From: Candidatus Hodarchaeota archaeon
GTDB lineage: Archaea; Asgardarchaeota; Heimdallarchaeia; Hodarchaeales; Hodarchaeaceae
DNA length: 64,000 nt
NCBI GenBank assembly: GCA_029856365.1
Contig: JAHQWW010000006.1
Coordinates: forward strand, 21,555 to 85,554
Direction of reading: 5' to 3'
The translations under genes were made by a program, and so were the position numbers. Below are positions 10,287 through 16,374 of the stretch, piece after piece (position 1 is the stretch's first letter; every line of letters begins with the position of its first letter). Below the pieces are notes generated by a model. The model searched no databases, had not been told where the DNA came from, and worked only from the letters and a program-made list of their open reading frames with translations.

Positions 10287-10361
10287 GGGCCGATAGCTCA
10301 GCCTGGAAGTAGCGCCTGGCTTGCAATCAGGAGGTCGTGGGTTCAAATCCCATTCGGTCCA
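10287..10361 (+). tRNA. tRNA-Ala(TGC), no intron
   Basis: Acceptor GGGCCGA/TCGGTCC with G3:U70 Ala determinant; anticodon arm CCTGG-CT-TGC-AA-TCAGG; T arm GTGGG-TTCAAAT-CCCAT. Confidence 0.96.
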
Positions 10362-10543
10362 CAATTTCTTTAGGAAAATCCCTGGAAACGCGTATAAATA
10401 TGAATAAAGAATAAAAGGATCTATTATTGGCTTAAACTCGTTTTTTTCCCTCTTTAGTTTCTGAAAAGGAATAATACATGATTTTCAATCCTATATAACT
10501 GAGAATATTTCACCTCATTTCACAAGAAATAAAGTATTTCCAC

Positions 10544-10756
10544 TCAAGTAAATAAAGATCCTAACTCTTTTAGTAATTCATCAGCATTAAGTAAAAGCCA
10601 ATCAAGAACTCCAGTCACGATTGATAAAATAAGTAAAAAGCCAAATAGACTCAGTCCTATTAAAATTCCTTCTTCAACTAAAGGTGAAGCTCTTCTATCC
10701 CTTTTTAATCGTTTTAATAGAGAAATAACTCCTCTTTTTCCTGAAATTGATTTCAT
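10544..10756 (-). CDS. Small type IV/Flp-like pilin with class III signal peptide
   Basis: Basic leader KRLKRDRRA|SPLVE with Glu at +5, then a long hydrophobic helix; 70 aa. Confidence 0.6.
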   Translation of the reverse strand: MKSISGKRGVISLLKRLKRDRRASPLVEEGILIGLSLFGFLLILSIVTGVLDWLLLNADELLKELGSLFT

Positions 10757-10872
10757 GGTTTCGCCAATCTACCTCTTCCCTTGCTCCTTTTAACCTCCCA
10801 AAAATTAGCAACAGAAATGTGATTTTTGGGTAATTAAAATAAAAAATATTATTGGGAGTATTGGTGTGTATC

Positions 10873-11463
10873 ATGAGGCTATTACCACCAGATAATAATA
10901 AACCATTGAAAATTGTCATCTTAGGGGAAGGAGGAGTTGGAAAAACAACTATATCAAAGACATTCATCAACAATTCGTTTTTCAGTAAAGCAAAACAAAC
11001 AATTGCGGTAGAGTTTCATTCTAAAATACTTTCAAATTGTAAGAACACCTTTTGTAAGCTACAAATATGGGATCTAGGAGGACAAGAGCAATTTAAGAAT
11101 ATGGGAGTTTTTGAAGAGTTTTGTAAAGGCTCCGACGCAGCACTCTTATGTTTTGATCTGACAGATTTATCCTCCTTATTTTCTATCCCTGAATGGATTA
11201 GTTTTATCGAACCTCATGTACCCAAGTTTTTAATTGGTACAAAATCTGATATTGCGTCTTCTGAAGAGAGAAAATTTGACTTAATACCATTTCAGAAAAG
11301 ATTTCAGTGTGTAACTTCATTTAAATGTTCAGTAAAGGATGTTATTTCCGTAATAGGAATTTTTGAAACAGTAATCGGATTTATTCAGAATATCCGAAGT
11401 GGTAGGGTTAAATTTCATTCCGATTTATCATTAGAGCTCTCAAAACATCTATTAATCTCTTAA
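10873..11463 (+). CDS. Rab/Ras-like small GTPase
   Basis: G1 GEGGVGKT, G2 TIAVEF, G3 WDLGGQ, G4 TKSD, G5 SVK; no C-terminal prenylation cysteines; ATG 10873 preferred over TTG 10852. Confidence 0.9.
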   Translation: MRLLPPDNNKPLKIVILGEGGVGKTTISKTFINNSFFSKAKQTIAVEFHSKILSNCKNTFCKLQIWDLGGQEQFKNMGVFEEFCKGSDAALLCFDLTDLSSLFSIPEWISFIEPHVPKFLIGTKSDIASSEERKFDLIPFQKRFQCVTSFKCSVKDVISVIGIFETVIGFIQNIRSGRVKFHSDLSLELSKHLLIS

Positions 11464-11473
11464 GGCGATTTTA

Positions 11474-12223
11474 ATGCAAAAATTATTGAGAAAAGTGTAT
11501 AATCAAGAATATAATAGAATACTAAGTGGTGTCCCTGGTTTCGATAATTTAGTTTTCGGTGGATTTCGTAAGAATTCAGTTAACGTAATTATTGCTGACC
11601 CTGGATGTGGAAAATCAACTTTTTGCTGGCAATTTTGCTCTGAAGACTCCCAATCCCCCGCTCTGTATGTTTCTCTAGAACAGAATATTGATTCAGTATT
11701 TCAAGATTGCTGTGATATTGGACTTACTAAATTCAAAGAGAAATATCGACGGGGAAGTTTACAATTTCAAGTTGCCTTTTCTGAAGATTCAGACTTAACT
11801 TCAGGTGAGATTGCTTTGCGTTTTTTTATGTCAGAGCTACCAAAGTACCTAGAAGTCATCAAAGAAACTGCAGATAGCTATCAGGGTGGTATCCGTATAG
11901 CTATTGATCCTCTCACTCCATTACTTCTTGAAATTCCAGAATCAAATCATCAAAGAAATGTCATCAACAGGATTTTTTCTTCGTTAAGAAAGATTGGAAC
12001 TTCTGTCGTGACAATTGAAAAGGGATTTGGAAAAACACTCGCAAGAATACCTCTTTTTTTGTCTGATTCAATAATTGAACTCGATCACATAGGATTAGGT
12101 GGAATATACAATAGAACTTTAAGCATACGTAAGTTTAGAGGATCTGCTCATTCAGAAATACCTCAACCAATTTGTTTTGAGAAAAATAAAGGTCTGATAG
12201 TCCATGATATCTCAAGTAATTGA
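11474..12223 (+). CDS. KaiC-like (RAD55/ArlH family) single-domain ATPase
   Basis: SGVPGFD, Walker A DPGCGKS, YVSLEQ, IAIDP, RTLSIRKFRGSAHS. Confidence 0.85.
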   Translation: MQKLLRKVYNQEYNRILSGVPGFDNLVFGGFRKNSVNVIIADPGCGKSTFCWQFCSEDSQSPALYVSLEQNIDSVFQDCCDIGLTKFKEKYRRGSLQFQVAFSEDSDLTSGEIALRFFMSELPKYLEVIKETADSYQGGIRIAIDPLTPLLLEIPESNHQRNVINRIFSSLRKIGTSVVTIEKGFGKTLARIPLFLSDSIIELDHIGLGGIYNRTLSIRKFRGSAHSEIPQPICFEKNKGLIVHDISSN

Positions 12224-12659
12224 CTCTCCAGTTATTAACTCTGATGTTCCTCCTACTGATCTATCGCCAGTAATGGCCTCACTTGACAAGGAGTTAACAT
12301 ACCTCGCGGATTTTACCGATGTACAAGCTGTAATCCTATTTCGACTAGATGGAAAAGTTATAAAATCCCAATATCGTTCAAAAGCTTCTCAAAATCTGTT
12401 AGTTGTTATGAAATGGGTGAAAAATATAATTTCTAAAACAATGGAGGAGCTTCAAGCAGGATCACGATGTATCAAATATGATAAAGAAATCAACAGGAAG
12501 GAAGCTATCCCAGTCTATTTTTATTGTGCTGGAAAAACTAGTATCGTTGTAACAATTCTCACTTCAGTAGCTAATACAGGTCTAATGGAAATCGAAATGA
12601 GTCGTAATGCACGACGAATAGGGGAGATTATTGACAAAAAAGAACCTTTAGGTGACTAA
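12204..12659 (+). CDS. Roadblock/LC7 (MglB-like) domain protein
   Basis: DVQAVILFRLDG strand-hairpin, central helix, C-terminal NTGLMEIEM helix typical of the roadblock fold. Confidence 0.65.
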   Translation: MISQVIDSPVINSDVPPTDLSPVMASLDKELTYLADFTDVQAVILFRLDGKVIKSQYRSKASQNLLVVMKWVKNIISKTMEELQAGSRCIKYDKEINRKEAIPVYFYCAGKTSIVVTILTSVANTGLMEIEMSRNARRIGEIIDKKEPLGD

Positions 12660-12661
12660 AC

Positions 12662-14041
12662 CTGATAAAAGCGGCAACAGGTCTCTACATAGATCATGAT
12701 TTAAAGCGAGCTACTATAAAAGCTCTCGAACAAGCTGAAGATGAGCTTGAAGTACAACCAAGTGCTATTCTATATTTCACGGGGTCACATCATGGGGGAG
12801 CGAAAACATATAACCAAGCAATGGCAGTAATAAAGGAGCGATATCCAAATGTTCCTCTAACAGGATGTTCTGGTCTCGGTATGGCCAATAAGAATGATTA
12901 TGGATTAAAAGGGGCAGGAATGATGTTATTGGCTGGTATTACTGCTAAAAACACCATTATAAAACGGTTCCGTGTTGGTAACTGGCTTAAGACCAAGAAA
13001 GTCGTACGAAATTGTACGAAAACAGTTCAATCTGAAAGTAAAAGAAATTCAAATACCACTCACATCTTCTTTCCTCCTGGCGTTGGATTTCCAAAGTTTA
13101 TGGCAAATTTGTTGAATCACCGTATTGAGGGTATAAACCCTTTTATGCCCTTCAATAACCGTATTTGGCGTAAATTTTCGATTCTTTCAAAAATAGTTGG
13201 AAAACCAACTGAACTATTAATGAATATTGCTGGAATCGGTTTTTCCTATTCTTCTTCATGGCCCCTTTTCACGCAGCTCTATAGAAGAGGCATACATTTT
13301 ACAGGTAGTTTTGGCGCTGATCCATTAACCATGTTCAAAGCTTATCAATTCTATAACTACAAGGCCTTTAAAGATTCATTAGCATACATGTCAATAAGCT
13401 CTCCAAACCTCCAATTTGAGAGTAGAGCTGATTCAGGCGGAGAAATTCTCCCTGATAAGAACCTTAGTCTTGATAGCTTCATTAATGGAGGATTCATTCC
13501 ACGAATTCATGGAAAATGGGGTGCTGATGCTTTACTTGAATTATATGGCATGGAGAATTGTCCTGATATCTTAGAAAGATGTACACAACGAGCTTTTTAT
13601 GCCCATCCTTACAGACCACTCTGTGTTATTGATGGCCAACAGAACCTAAATCTCTACGGTTTAATCGTTAATCCGAACCTAAAGCATGCACTTGTCACAG
13701 CACCCCCTCAAATAGCTAAGAAATTACATTCCAATGATCCAAATCGATATAAGGCATTTATTGGAGACCAAAGCTCAACTACAATTGAGTGTTCCTTAAA
13801 AAAAACTCTTAGGACATTAGTTACGAAAGATACGACTTTTGGTTTATTTTTCGATTGTGCAAATAGAACTATGGTTCTTGGAGATAAATTTGGTAAGTAT
13901 CTTGAGAATTTTAAAGATCACCTTGGGAAAACCCCATATCTTGTTATCCTTTCAGGTGGGGAAGTCAACTCTCAGGATTATCCCATAGTAAATTTCACCA
14001 CAGTTTCTCACGTAGCCAATAAGACCACACCTGTTCACTGA
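12662..14041 (+). CDS. FIST-domain signal-transduction protein (extended to a non-canonical start)
   Basis: PNVPLTGCS, FFDCANR, GGEV and NFTTV motifs; frame stays open upstream of ATG 12821 to CTG 12662 and encodes a FIST-like N-terminus (IKAATG...PSAILYF). Confidence 0.75.
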   Translation: MIKAATGLYIDHDLKRATIKALEQAEDELEVQPSAILYFTGSHHGGAKTYNQAMAVIKERYPNVPLTGCSGLGMANKNDYGLKGAGMMLLAGITAKNTIIKRFRVGNWLKTKKVVRNCTKTVQSESKRNSNTTHIFFPPGVGFPKFMANLLNHRIEGINPFMPFNNRIWRKFSILSKIVGKPTELLMNIAGIGFSYSSSWPLFTQLYRRGIHFTGSFGADPLTMFKAYQFYNYKAFKDSLAYMSISSPNLQFESRADSGGEILPDKNLSLDSFINGGFIPRIHGKWGADALLELYGMENCPDILERCTQRAFYAHPYRPLCVIDGQQNLNLYGLIVNPNLKHALVTAPPQIAKKLHSNDPNRYKAFIGDQSSTTIECSLKKTLRTLVTKDTTFGLFFDCANRTMVLGDKFGKYLENFKDHLGKTPYLVILSGGEVNSQDYPIVNFTTVSHVANKTTPVH

Positions 14042-14087
14042 AATAACTCCTTTTATCAAAAACAAATAATGACAGAATAGGATAAAT

Positions 14088-15461
14088 ATGTCATTCATTT
14101 ATACAATCCTTGGTATTTCAGCTTTTCCTTCAGATTTACGAAACCTAAGCCTCAAATATTGTGGTTTACATGTTGTAGTCTCCGGAATCTATCTGAGTTA
14201 TGCTTGGATATCATTATATTATTTATCAATTCTAGATTCCTTTATTGTTTTTGGAATAATCTTGTCCATTGGAATGCTTTGTGGAGCCATTCTTGACCTA
14301 CCCCTTGGTGTCCTAACGGATTATTTTGGTCAGAGGATTGCGTTCAGTGTCGCATTATCTTGTTTATTTGTATACTACTTTGGACTTATTTTTGCCTCAA
14401 AACCTATTGAATTACTATTCTTAGAAATTATTGTTGGAATTTATTCTGCACTCCTTTCTGGATCGTTTAATGCTTGGTTTATGAACACTTGGGAATTTAT
14501 CTCGTCAAAAGGAAATGAATTATCCTTCCGTAATATAATGGGAAGTGTCAATTTTGTGAAGACAATTGTAGCCGCTGTTGCAGCATTCATTGGAGGATTT
14601 CTACTTTATCAAACCCAGGTTCAACCACAAACTATCTTTCTGTTACAAGCTTTAATTGCAGCTATAGGAATTATTCTCGGATTAAAATTCATATCTTCTC
14701 CCTTTTCGATAAAGAGAAGAATATTGCATAAAGAAGAGAGAATGAATTTCTTATCCCAAATTAATAATCGTGAAGCATCTAGATTAGCCAAAAAAATTCA
14801 GTATGTAAAAGAGAAATATATTATTATCACTCCTTTCTTCATAAGTTTTTCTCTCTTGGCTTTTACTTCTGTCTCCTTTAGTACGGTGGTTTTTTCTTCC
14901 TTATTATACGACATTAGTTCTCCAATTCAGATTTTCAAACAAAGTAACTATGAAATTCATTTTGCTGCAATTTCGATAATACTCATCTCAATGATTCGAG
15001 CGATTTCAGATATCATCTTTGCAGTTGCTAGTCGCTTTTCTGGAAAAGTAACTTCTTTCATTAGCTCTCCTTATAAAGGATTGCTTATATTTTATACTCT
15101 TAATTATCCAATTAGTTGGATTACATATTTAGGCATCGTAGTTATCAATTTCTCTCCAAATATAAAACTAAATCTGGTCATTCTAACATTTTTTCTGAGA
15201 ATAGTCTTAATAGGACTTACTACTGGCCTTTACTGGCAATTATATCTCAATATTACTTCTTCTGAAACAAGAAGCTCTCAGGAATCCCTTTTTAACACAA
15301 TTAATTCATTCCTTTCAATAATAGGGTATGGATTACTAGGTGTGATAATTGAATTTTACAGATTCAGGGGCGCTATGATCTTTTTACTTGCTGTAAGCTG
15401 TTTAGGAATGCTTATACTGGTTCTTGTCAAAAATCCTGATAATATTTCTCAAATACATTAA
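14088..15461 (+). CDS. MFS transporter
   Basis: About 12 hydrophobic segments; motif A-like DLPLGVLTDYFGQR; SGSFNAW. Confidence 0.85.
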   Translation: MSFIYTILGISAFPSDLRNLSLKYCGLHVVVSGIYLSYAWISLYYLSILDSFIVFGIILSIGMLCGAILDLPLGVLTDYFGQRIAFSVALSCLFVYYFGLIFASKPIELLFLEIIVGIYSALLSGSFNAWFMNTWEFISSKGNELSFRNIMGSVNFVKTIVAAVAAFIGGFLLYQTQVQPQTIFLLQALIAAIGIILGLKFISSPFSIKRRILHKEERMNFLSQINNREASRLAKKIQYVKEKYIIITPFFISFSLLAFTSVSFSTVVFSSLLYDISSPIQIFKQSNYEIHFAAISIILISMIRAISDIIFAVASRFSGKVTSFISSPYKGLLIFYTLNYPISWITYLGIVVINFSPNIKLNLVILTFFLRIVLIGLTTGLYWQLYLNITSSETRSSQESLFNTINSFLSIIGYGLLGVIIEFYRFRGAMIFLLAVSCLGMLILVLVKNPDNISQIH

Positions 15462-15573
15462 GTGATTATTAAAGATAACAAAGAAAAATCTTTTGAAATA
15501 GGATTTTTTTATGTCATTCTTTTTTCATTCAATAGAAGTAAATTTCGTTAATATGATTAAAGGTGAGAGAACT

Positions 15574-16374
15574 TTGATTGAGGCATCAAAAAATCCCCTT
15601 ATTGTGTTTTTGACGGATTTTGGCAGTGATCCTTATGTTGGTATAATGAAAGGGAGAATTCTTCAAATAAATCCCTTAGTTAGAATTATTTCACTAACTA
15701 ATAATATAAACACACAAGACATTCGTCATGCTGCTTTTGTCTTGTTGAAATCATACAAGTATTTTCCACCTCATACAATCTTTTTAGCTATTGTAGACCC
15801 TGGAGTTGGTGGCCCAAGAAAGGCAATTGCAGCCAAAAAAGATGATTACTACTTCATTGGACCTGATAATGGCATTCTATCACCTATCTTTTCCGATAAT
15901 AAGGATGTAATTGTTGTTGATCTTCCGATCCCTGATGAAGCTTCACATACTTTTCATGGACGAGATGTATTCGCTCCTGCAGCTGGTAAACTTAGCCAGA
16001 CTTATTTACTTAAAGATCTAGGCCCCATCAGTGCCATTCAAACCTCCTTTGATTTCTACTGGGATCATGTTACATTAACAGGGGAAGTTATTTTTATTGA
16101 TCATTTTGGAAATATCATAACTAATATTCCCAATTCAATGAATCTACAATATAACAAAGAGTATCTATTATTAACGACCAAGACTAAAGTAATACTAAGT
16201 TTTAAGGGAAGTTACTTTGAAGGTTCTGATGTAAACCCATTTCTCGTTATTAGTAGCTATGAAACAATAGAAATCTCTCTCCAAAATGGAAGAGCTGCAG
16301 ATATTTTAGATATTACTCCAGGTGATCGAATCCAAATTCGCTCTGTTGATAAAAAGATTAAGATTGACAAGTAA
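15574..16374 (+). CDS. SAM hydroxide adenosyltransferase (DUF62, chlorinase/fluorinase family)
   Basis: LTDFG, VDPGVG, GPDNG, TFHGRDVF, IDHFGN; TTG 15574 follows AGGTGA. Confidence 0.9.
   Translation: MIEASKNPLIVFLTDFGSDPYVGIMKGRILQINPLVRIISLTNNINTQDIRHAAFVLLKSYKYFPPHTIFLAIVDPGVGGPRKAIAAKKDDYYFIGPDNGILSPIFSDNKDVIVVDLPIPDEASHTFHGRDVFAPAAGKLSQTYLLKDLGPISAIQTSFDFYWDHVTLTGEVIFIDHFGNIITNIPNSMNLQYNKEYLLLTTKTKVILSFKGSYFEGSDVNPFLVISSYETIEISLQNGRAADILDITPGDRIQIRSVDKKIKIDK

Follow-up and report, generated by a model that had tools for sequence, protein, structure and literature searches.

A conserved gene core of a KaiC-like ATPase, a Roadblock-fold protein and a FIST protein, usually joined by a Rab-like GTPase, in Hodarchaeales and other Asgard archaea

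The stretch of DNA analyzed here (hereafter the window) comprises 64,000 nucleotides from a Candidatus Hodarchaeota archaeon (GenBank assembly GCA_029856365.1, contig JAHQWW010000006.1, positions 21,555 to 85,554). At 10544-15461, it carries five co-oriented genes, which encode a Rab-like small GTPase, a KaiC-like ATPase, a Roadblock-fold protein, a FIST protein and a transporter of the major facilitator superfamily (MFS), and a divergent pilin gene. The order KaiC, Roadblock, FIST is the conserved, ancient core of this locus and recurred in three Asgard families and on metagenome contigs; FIST and Roadblock are also predicted to form a complex. In our judgment the module is quite probably a genuine co-functioning unit. 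The reading that we prefer, with a rough probability of 0.55, is a cytoplasmic signal-processing module that has KaiC-Roadblock-FIST as its core and works by the mechanism proposed below. All six open reading frames (ORFs) were present in the ORF reading of the window, and the features of the locus are as follows.

10544..10756, minus strand: class-III-signal (Flp-like) pilin precursor, 70 aa (alignment of 13 orthologues, codon changes).
10757..10872, no strand: divergent intergenic region between the pilin and GTPase genes, 116 nt (sequence reading).
10873..11463, plus strand: Rab-like small GTPase, 196 aa (Pfam Ras, 2.4e-27).
11474..12223, plus strand: single-domain KaiC-like (RecA-superfamily) ATPase, 249 aa (Pfam KaiC, 4.1e-27).
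12204..12659, plus strand: Roadblock/LC7-fold protein of the 'AF0774' family (PF27410), 151 aa (profile, AlphaFold2 model, Foldseek).
12662..14041, plus strand: stand-alone FIST_N+FIST_C protein, 459 aa, CTG start (Pfam, AlphaFold2 model).
14088..15461, plus strand: MFS-type transporter, 457 aa (Pfam MFS_1, 1.9e-13).

The five co-oriented genes have the identities that a first-pass annotation, made from the letters of the DNA, had given them (Rab-like GTPase, KaiC-like ATPase, Roadblock, FIST, MFS). That annotation had also named neighborhood conservation across Asgard genomes as a check on its idea of a signaling module. The neighborhood was compared in the window's Hodarchaeales family and genus (f1, Candidatus Hodarchaeales/Hodarchaeum, including H. 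mangrovi and 'Heimdallarchaeota B3_Heim', with the window's genome as G000), in Heimdallarchaeaceae (f3, including Heimdallarchaeum aukensis, H. endolithica and AB_125), in a third Asgard family (f32, locus L049) and in a family of another Asgard class (f20, loci L054-L063). Within the genus, the order Csl4-RIO-KH-(tRNA)-pilin / GTPase-KaiC-Roadblock-FIST-MFS-(SAM_HAT)-SecY was kept in all 18 loci with enough sequence, which alone says little because the housekeeping flanks are equally conserved. In Heimdallarchaeaceae, the order was KaiC-Roadblock-FIST-GTPase-p106, with junctions of 1-13 nt, unrelated flanks (RPA, EF-1α) and the GTPase gene at the opposite end of the operon; in f32, it was KaiC-Roadblock-FIST-MFS, divergent from a longin-like gene. 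Conservation of the core therefore goes beyond shared synteny, as the core persisted in other families with unrelated flanking genes and a GTPase gene that has changed place. The KaiC, Roadblock and FIST proteins of Heimdallarchaeaceae had the window genes as their best or only matches in the window's genome, and the window KaiC was the reciprocal best hit of the KaiC of the Heimdallarchaeaceae module.

The metagenome contigs gave the same picture: KaiC lay immediately upstream of Roadblock in all six loci with upstream sequence, often with a 4-nt overlap, and FIST lay directly downstream of Roadblock in two of the three loci with downstream sequence. The FIST profile found the gene in 21/21 congeners, in 28 of the 31 Heimdallarchaeaceae genomes and in a few other Asgard lineages, and the Roadblock family had only 54 members in an exhaustive profile search of 1.84 billion representatives. 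The distribution of the module is thus patchy and covers Heimdallarchaeia and a few other Asgard lineages. The core accordingly came through the neighborhood check in f1, f3, f32 and on metagenome contigs, and KaiC, Roadblock and FIST, usually accompanied by the Rab-like GTPase, make up a functional unit that is conserved across three families whose flanking genes differ, as the first-pass annotation had suspected.

We propose the Roadblock protein as the hub adaptor of the module. By sequence, the window protein had no match in Pfam, NCBIfam or the PDB; it was not matched by Robl_LC7 (PF03259), and just 3 of 18 family members reached E 7e-4 with that model. A profile of the 18 sequences matched the Thorarchaeota Roadblock structure 7f8m at 9.3e-8. 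The AlphaFold2 model (predicted local distance difference test score, pLDDT, 88) had the topology α-β-β-α-β-β-β-α, which is that of the Roadblock/LC7 fold, and the top 50 Foldseek matches contained MglB in first place, Asgard Roadblocks (Prometheoarchaeum, Thorarchaeota), Ragulator subunits and a Streptomyces Roadblock. The likeness to MglB is one of fold only, at 14-16% identity. The label 'roadblock', which had been given to this ORF from its sequence, was therefore borne out by the profile match, the model and Foldseek. In public records, the family falls under PF27410 'AF0774', a recently added Pfam entry, and a literature search on 'AF0774' returned no relevant paper; the locus gives a functional context to this uncharacterized Pfam family.

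The FIST protein was matched by FIST_N (Pfam, 5.6e-6, 26.8 bits against a cut-off of 23.2). Its AlphaFold2 model had a pLDDT of 79, with the FBXO22 FIST domain as the best structural match (E 2e-8), and a FIST profile search of the PDB found no solved relative by sequence. The prediction of a FIST-Roadblock complex gave an interaction prediction score from aligned errors (ipSAE) of 0.80, compared with 0.00 for the best of three controls; this mark was attained for 58 of the 80 solved complexes and for 2 of the 110 mismatched pairs, counts that are approximate for the present prediction, in which our own alignments were used. At least 88% of the contacts agreed between runs, and the partner had a pLDDT of at least 77. 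On the Roadblock side, the predicted interface was formed by residues 33-39 and 122-134 (the end of helix α1 and the start of α3), including the family-invariant N124, L127, I130, E131 and R134; on the FIST side, it was formed by residues 10-12, 80-83 and 400-411, including the family-invariant N401, R402, G407 and D408. Neither the FIST profile search of the PDB nor the structural match search found a comparable solved complex, so the score is unlikely to reflect a memorized structure. The model thus predicts that FIST binds Roadblock.

The FIST gene also adjoins Roadblock genes in a different operon of f20, and Roadblock and FIST are therefore the constant pair. No description of a FIST-Roadblock pairing or complex was found in the literature searched, and the locus defines this pairing. 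The f20 operon was present in 18/135 genomes (L054-L063, e.g. L060:3995-10393) and consisted of genes for a Roadblock, a double Roadblock-like protein of 310-340 aa, gelsolin, FIST, the acyl-protein synthetase LuxE and the acyl-CoA reductase LuxC. At L060, this operon adjoins a gene for a giant GTPase with Roadblock, Roc/Ras and leucine-rich-repeat parts.

The small GTPase has the motifs GEGGVGKT (G1), DLGGQ (G3) and TKSD (G4). Its nearest PDB relatives were Rab43, 33B, 9, 7 and 11 (best E 1.6e-19); the best 60 PDB matches were almost all Rab/Ypt, and MglA was not among them. No Cys prenylation motif was found at the C-terminus, and we describe the protein, from its sequence, as 'Rab-like' and not as a Rab. 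It consists of the G domain only, without a Roadblock C-terminal domain, and its Gtr1_RagA score (21.6 bits) was below the cut-off of 22. A natural 337-aa metagenomic protein (L149:5001-6014) is a Rosetta-stone fusion of an AF0774-type Roadblock with a Ras-family G domain. The closest paralogue of the GTPase in the window's genome (58% identity) lies in a Robl_LC7-GTPase-MFS cluster (C161:4558-6972, L133; Robl_LC7 3e-13, MFS_1 1e-30), whose Roadblock-GTPase pair was kept in nine species of the genus and whose MFS gene was kept in five. KaiC-like and small-GTPase genes were also adjacent at two further loci of the same genome, on contigs C32 and C58. The fusion, the paralogous cluster and these adjacencies are independent of one another and tie a GTPase of this type to partners such as those in the module. 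The C32 locus (C32:11931-14825, L134) contains co-oriented genes for an Arf-like GTPase, a KaiC-like ATPase, ubiquitin and a ThiF/E1-like enzyme; C58 carries a third KaiC-like gene close to a gene for a GTPase.

The KaiC-like ATPase has a single domain of 249 aa, which matched Pfam KaiC (PF06745) over its whole length at 4.1e-27. G44, G46, K47 and T49 of Walker A, the catalytic E69 and D145 of Walker B were invariant across the three families. The matches to KaiC-type NCBIfam models were below the cut-offs (for the clock KaiC, 82 bits against 408), and the features of a clock-type KaiC were not found: there was no duplicated domain, and no KaiB-like gene was present among the ORFs of the locus.

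The tight gene spacing claimed for the locus was confirmed, with the 116-nt divergent region, a 10-nt gap, a 20-nt overlap and a 46-nt gap. The 20-nt overlap is that of the Roadblock start with the end of the KaiC gene, and the GGTGA Shine-Dalgarno motif of FIST sits within the 3' end of the Roadblock gene. The start of the GTPase was corrected to the ATG at 10873, in agreement with the N-termini of the orthologues, and the intergenic region is rich in A/T about 25-45 nt upstream of this ATG. A scan for sigma-70 promoters and terminators gave results at or below shuffle expectation, with a bacterial-type model that is ill-suited to archaea. From 12656 onward, the reading frame of FIST is uninterrupted and conserved, and it contains no ATG, GTG or TTG before 12821. 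At codon 12662, which begins 2 nt past the Roadblock stop, orthologues have ATG or GTG (congeners ATG, GTG or TTG), and CTG is found in the window, in L013 and L014 and, independently, in L031. Since the orthologues carry canonical starts at the codon where the window has CTG, the FIST gene extends over 12662-14041 and encodes 459 aa. Public gene calls begin FIST at ATG 12821, which gives 406 aa and loses 53 conserved residues, and the CTG start corrects this systematic mis-annotation. A programmed frameshift or a Roadblock-FIST fusion, considered because FIST lacks a canonical start in the window, was ruled out by the ATG or GTG of the orthologues at this codon.

In the mechanism that we propose, the Roadblock protein would be the hub, produced in fixed proportion to the KaiC-like ATPase because the two genes are translationally coupled, and would carry FIST on its α1/α3 face. 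FIST would be the input subunit, binding a small ligand or a protein, as NosP does for its kinase, and, by way of the Roadblock adaptor, would tune the KaiC-like protein in its ATPase or autophosphorylation state. Roadblock would in turn act on the co-encoded Rab-like GTPase as a regulator of the GTPase-activating protein (GAP) or guanine nucleotide exchange factor (GEF) type, as in MglB and Ragulator. The GTP/GDP state of the GTPase would be the output at the membrane, where the adjacent MFS transporter would most likely be a client or co-sensor. Ligand sensing, a GAP or GEF role for Roadblock and the nature of the output are assigned here by analogy with these systems and are to be taken as candidate functions. 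In the structures of MglA-MglB and Ragulator, GTPases sit on the α2 face of the Roadblock dimer, and the predicted FIST contact on the α1/α3 face would therefore leave the α2 face free for a GTPase. The predicted interface is concrete and a natural fusion exists, so that recombinant proteins can be used to test the biochemistry directly.

Several observations weigh against this mechanism or limit it. The contacts of Roadblock with KaiC and with the GTPase are ones that we infer from gene order, the fusion and analogy. In the KaiC of Hodarchaeales, Glu-Gln replaces the Glu-Glu pair of the other families, and the ATPase may therefore be slow. FIST_C scored 1.7e-4 and 22.2 bits in the window protein, below the cut-off of 28.5 (public records list FIST_C for many close orthologues), and the FIST domain of FBXO22 binds a protein, not a metabolite. 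Two congeners (G004, G019) have no GTPase gene at the locus, a third (G005) has a degenerate copy, and f32 lacks the gene; the GTPase is therefore dispensable for the core and is an accessory member of the module. The module GTPases of Hodarchaeales and Heimdallarchaeaceae were also not reciprocal best hits. In a tree of 88 G domains, both fell into one clade (support 0.98), which also held eight Hodarchaeales paralogues and no other H. aukensis GTPase; its internal nodes were weak (0.16-0.74), and the tree leaves room both for a shared origin of the GTPase and for its separate recruitment in each family. Finally, the MFS gene is missing from the Heimdallarchaeaceae module.

The first-pass annotation had linked the module to a surface filament through the divergent 70-aa ORF. 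The call of this ORF as a pilin with a class-III signal peptide was borne out: it is a genuine class-III/Flp-like pilin gene under strong purifying selection. In the alignment of 13 orthologues, the protein has a variable basic leader of about 22 aa, the site RR(G/A)|SPLVEEG, Glu at +5 and a hydrophobic helix; the mature part of 46 aa is near-invariant, with 372 synonymous and 56 non-synonymous changes in its 46 codons across 18 species. It had no match in Pfam or NCBIfam, even at E 10. On the filament reading, the module would control the assembly or polarity of a type IV filament built from this pilin, as MglA/MglB and ArlH act on their type IV machines. The pilin gene stands head-to-head with the GTPase gene in every congener in which the region is assembled, an A24 prepilin peptidase is encoded on contig C91 of the window's genome (above the Pfam cut-off), and Roadblock proteins and KaiC-like ATPases have been reported in archaeal type IV pilus loci (PMC4858521). 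Moreover, an orthologous T2SSE-type ATPase is encoded at C81:19169-20575, 11.5 kb from the pilin and the module on the same contig. The filament parts of this genome are scattered over 27 kb of that contig, with a gene like that of transcription factor B (TFB) at C81:5172-6275, the p107 and ATPase genes at C81:18812-20575 and the pilin gene at C81:32101-32310, and RNA polymerase and ribosomal genes lie between them.

A weak hint of a pilus-module link, and the only one, may come from p106, a CxxC zinc-ribbon protein of about 106 aa. It is single-copy per genome and is encoded by the last gene of the Heimdallarchaeaceae module (L032:9496-9816). Its sole homologue in the window's genome, p107 (C81:18812-19135; L077:6813-7136), is encoded 34 nt upstream of the filament ATPase; p106 and p107 were related by hmmsearch at E 4e-4 against all genome ORFs and at 1e-27 once p107 was in the profile. 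In other families, the p106-type domain is part of proteins of 240-380 aa.

However, the adjacency of pilin and GTPase is an arrangement specific to one genus, in which the Csl4, RIO, KH, tRNA and SecY flanks are equally conserved, so that it is no independent evidence for a link. In f3 (L074:3220-7606) and f4 (L072:2964-7590), a member of the pilin family is found in an ATPase operon of its own, with genes for a TFB/TFIIB-like zinc ribbon, a T2SSE/FlaI-type ATPase (2e-16 in L074, 1e-15 in L072) and two membrane proteins, and in f3 the nearest pilin paralogue lies 17-112 kb from the module. The zinc-ribbon gene comes first in this operon and the pilin gene last, as seen in f4 and, within f3, in Heimdallarchaeum aukensis. 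The pilin family was present in 70 of the 83 genomes of the class, including families f2, f5 and f7, which have no module. Stand-alone pilin genes away from the machinery are common in archaea (PMC4858521), and the GTPase is Rab-like, not MglA-like. The filament link of the first-pass annotation was therefore not upheld: the pilin is most likely a component of a distinct type-IV-filament system and stands outside the module, and control of a filament by the module is unlikely. An apparent separation of pilin and module by 410 kb in G015 (L030/L067) was an artefact of a 100-N scaffold gap inside the GTPase gene, with no rearrangement.

Another reading is a nutrient sensor of the transceptor type, in which MFS and FIST would report a substrate to the Roadblock-GTPase pair, as SLC38A9 does to Ragulator-Rag, with KaiC as an energy or time gate. 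The MFS_1 match of the window protein (50.5 bits against a cut-off of 33.4) covers residues 33-407. The MFS gene follows FIST in two distant lineages, Hodarchaeales and f32 (in L049 directly after FIST, MFS_1 6.9e-39), and the paralogous Robl_LC7-GTPase-MFS cluster is found in the window's genome and four relatives; both give independent support to the transporter link that had been suggested for the locus. In addition, the structural matches of the Roadblock fold include Ragulator subunits next to MglB. Against this reading stand the absence of MFS from the Heimdallarchaeaceae module and from 3/8 paralogous clusters with enough sequence, the distant relation between the module MFS and that of the paralogous cluster, and the lack of a Rag C-terminal Roadblock domain in the GTPase. 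A functional link of the MFS transporter to the module is thus moderately supported, while a full transceptor system of this kind is improbable.

A further reading takes FIST as an enzyme or metabolite handler and the cluster as a metabolic or lipid-related complex, with KaiC and Roadblock as assembly factors. After FBXO22, the next structural matches of FIST were hydrolases of the Toblerone fold (cyanuric acid hydrolase, barbiturase), and in another Asgard class FIST lies between the Roadblock/gelsolin and LuxE/LuxC genes. The hydrolase matches are weak, however (template modeling score 0.3, E about 1e-3), characterized stand-alone FIST proteins are sensors (PMC12570481) or, in FBXO22, a substrate receptor, and no enzyme gene is conserved beside the core in Heimdallarchaeia, all of which makes an enzymatic FIST very unlikely. 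That the genes are neighbors by descent only, with no joint function, can be given hardly any credence: the whole 10-kb region, including its housekeeping genes, is syntenic within the genus, but the core persists in three families whose flanks differ and whose GTPase gene varies in position, metagenome contigs regularly carry KaiC directly before Roadblock, a Roadblock-Ras fusion protein exists and the FIST-Roadblock complex was predicted with clean controls.

Beyond the locus, tRNA-Ala (10287-10362) lies between the pilin gene and the upstream KH, RIO and Csl4 genes. On the other side, a gene for an S-adenosylmethionine (SAM) hydroxide adenosyltransferase (15511-16374; SAM_HAT_N, 3.6e-50) lies between MFS and SecY; a SAM_HAT gene was found at this position in some congeners only. 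In Heimdallarchaeaceae, a gene for a 252-aa UFL1-like winged-helix protein (PF09743, 2e-8) is divergent from the module (L032:5378-6136; L033-L048). The divergent longin-like protein of f32 (L049:4353-4838) matched Fuz_longin_1 (1.4e-4) and Sybindin (2.4e-3), both below the cut-off, and a LarA-like gene follows MFS at this locus. A search of the six window proteins with the PADLOC models of known anti-phage defense systems gave no match to any of them, and a defense-system reading was dropped.

Small GTPases are encoded by the dozen in Asgard genomes, alongside many Roadblock and longin proteins, and Hodarchaeales have been reported as the closest archaeal relatives of eukaryotes. The window's genome contained 52 G-domain ORFs. 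In Prometheoarchaeum MK-D1, GTPase and Roadblock genes as a rule do not share operons, which makes it hard to assign regulators to GTPases (Tran et al., PMC10933270). The present locus is an exception to this pattern, as a Rab-like GTPase is matched within an operon to a Roadblock family, an ATPase and a sensor-type protein. The combination of KaiC, AF0774-type Roadblock and FIST, with or without Rab-like GTPase and MFS, was not found in the literature searched, which did not include a 2017 survey of KaiC hubs, in line with the first-pass annotation, which had known of no description. This fits a picture in which Roadblock-GTPase pairs, KaiC-like hubs and FIST sensors are each known and their combination is new to the literature searched.

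Among the known systems, MglA/MglB of Myxococcus and Thermus likewise encode a Roadblock-fold protein with a Ras-superfamily GTPase, and MglB was the top structural match. They differ from the present locus in that the GTPase here is Rab-like, the Roadblock belongs to the separate small family PF27410, and MglAB have no KaiC-like ATPase or FIST partner. Closer in lineage is an operon of a LAMTOR1-like Roadblock, a Rab-like GTPase and DENN, described for 'most Asgard' (Liu et al., bioRxiv 10.1101/2020.10.19.343400), which shares the Asgard pairing of a Roadblock-superfamily protein with a Rab-like small GTPase. The window locus, in contrast, has no DENN gene, contains KaiC-like and FIST genes (neither term occurs in that preprint) and has a patchy distribution. 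The pilin resembles Flp/Tad-type and archaeal class-III-signal pilins in its basic leader, G/A at -1, Glu at +5, hydrophobic helix and mature peptide of about 46 aa, and in having homologues in T2SSE-ATPase operons; it differs from them in having no Pfam match and, in the window's genus, a gene detached from the ATPase operon.

The KaiC-like protein resembles KaiC/KaiB and the archaeal KaiC-like 'signal hubs' such as ArlH (PMC4858521) as a single-domain ATPase with intact motifs and a small partner encoded alongside, which might sense its state, whereas this partner has a Roadblock fold and not that of KaiB/thioredoxin, there is no second KaiC domain, and the genes are not in an archaellum or pilus operon. 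For FIST, the comparison is with NosP, a stand-alone FIST protein that binds the adjacent kinase and controls its autophosphorylation (PMC12570481). The likeness to NosP-NosK is one of architecture only, that is, a stand-alone FIST_N+FIST_C protein beside an NTPase, with a contact that is here predicted; the partner would be a KaiC-like ATPase reached through a Roadblock adaptor and not a histidine kinase, and binding of heme or nitric oxide cannot be deduced for the window protein.

The Rag-Ragulator-SLC38A9 system, which serves lysosomal nutrient sensing in eukaryotes, also combines a Roadblock scaffold, a small GTPase and a membrane transporter, and Ragulator subunits were among the structural matches of the window Roadblock. 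The window GTPase lacks the C-terminal Roadblock domain of Rag, the transporter is of the MFS type and not an amino-acid/auxin permease, and there is no evidence for homology of the whole assembly. It is a tentative and rather doubtful idea that a dedicated Roadblock adaptor holds a FIST ligand sensor together with a Rab-like GTPase and a KaiC-type autokinase in a single physical complex, in many cases along with a transporter; if it were true, the module would be a prokaryotic counterpart of the 'sensor, scaffold, GTPase' platforms of the Ragulator type, and its GTPase would be the first Asgard small GTPase to be matched to a regulator and an input from the genome alone.

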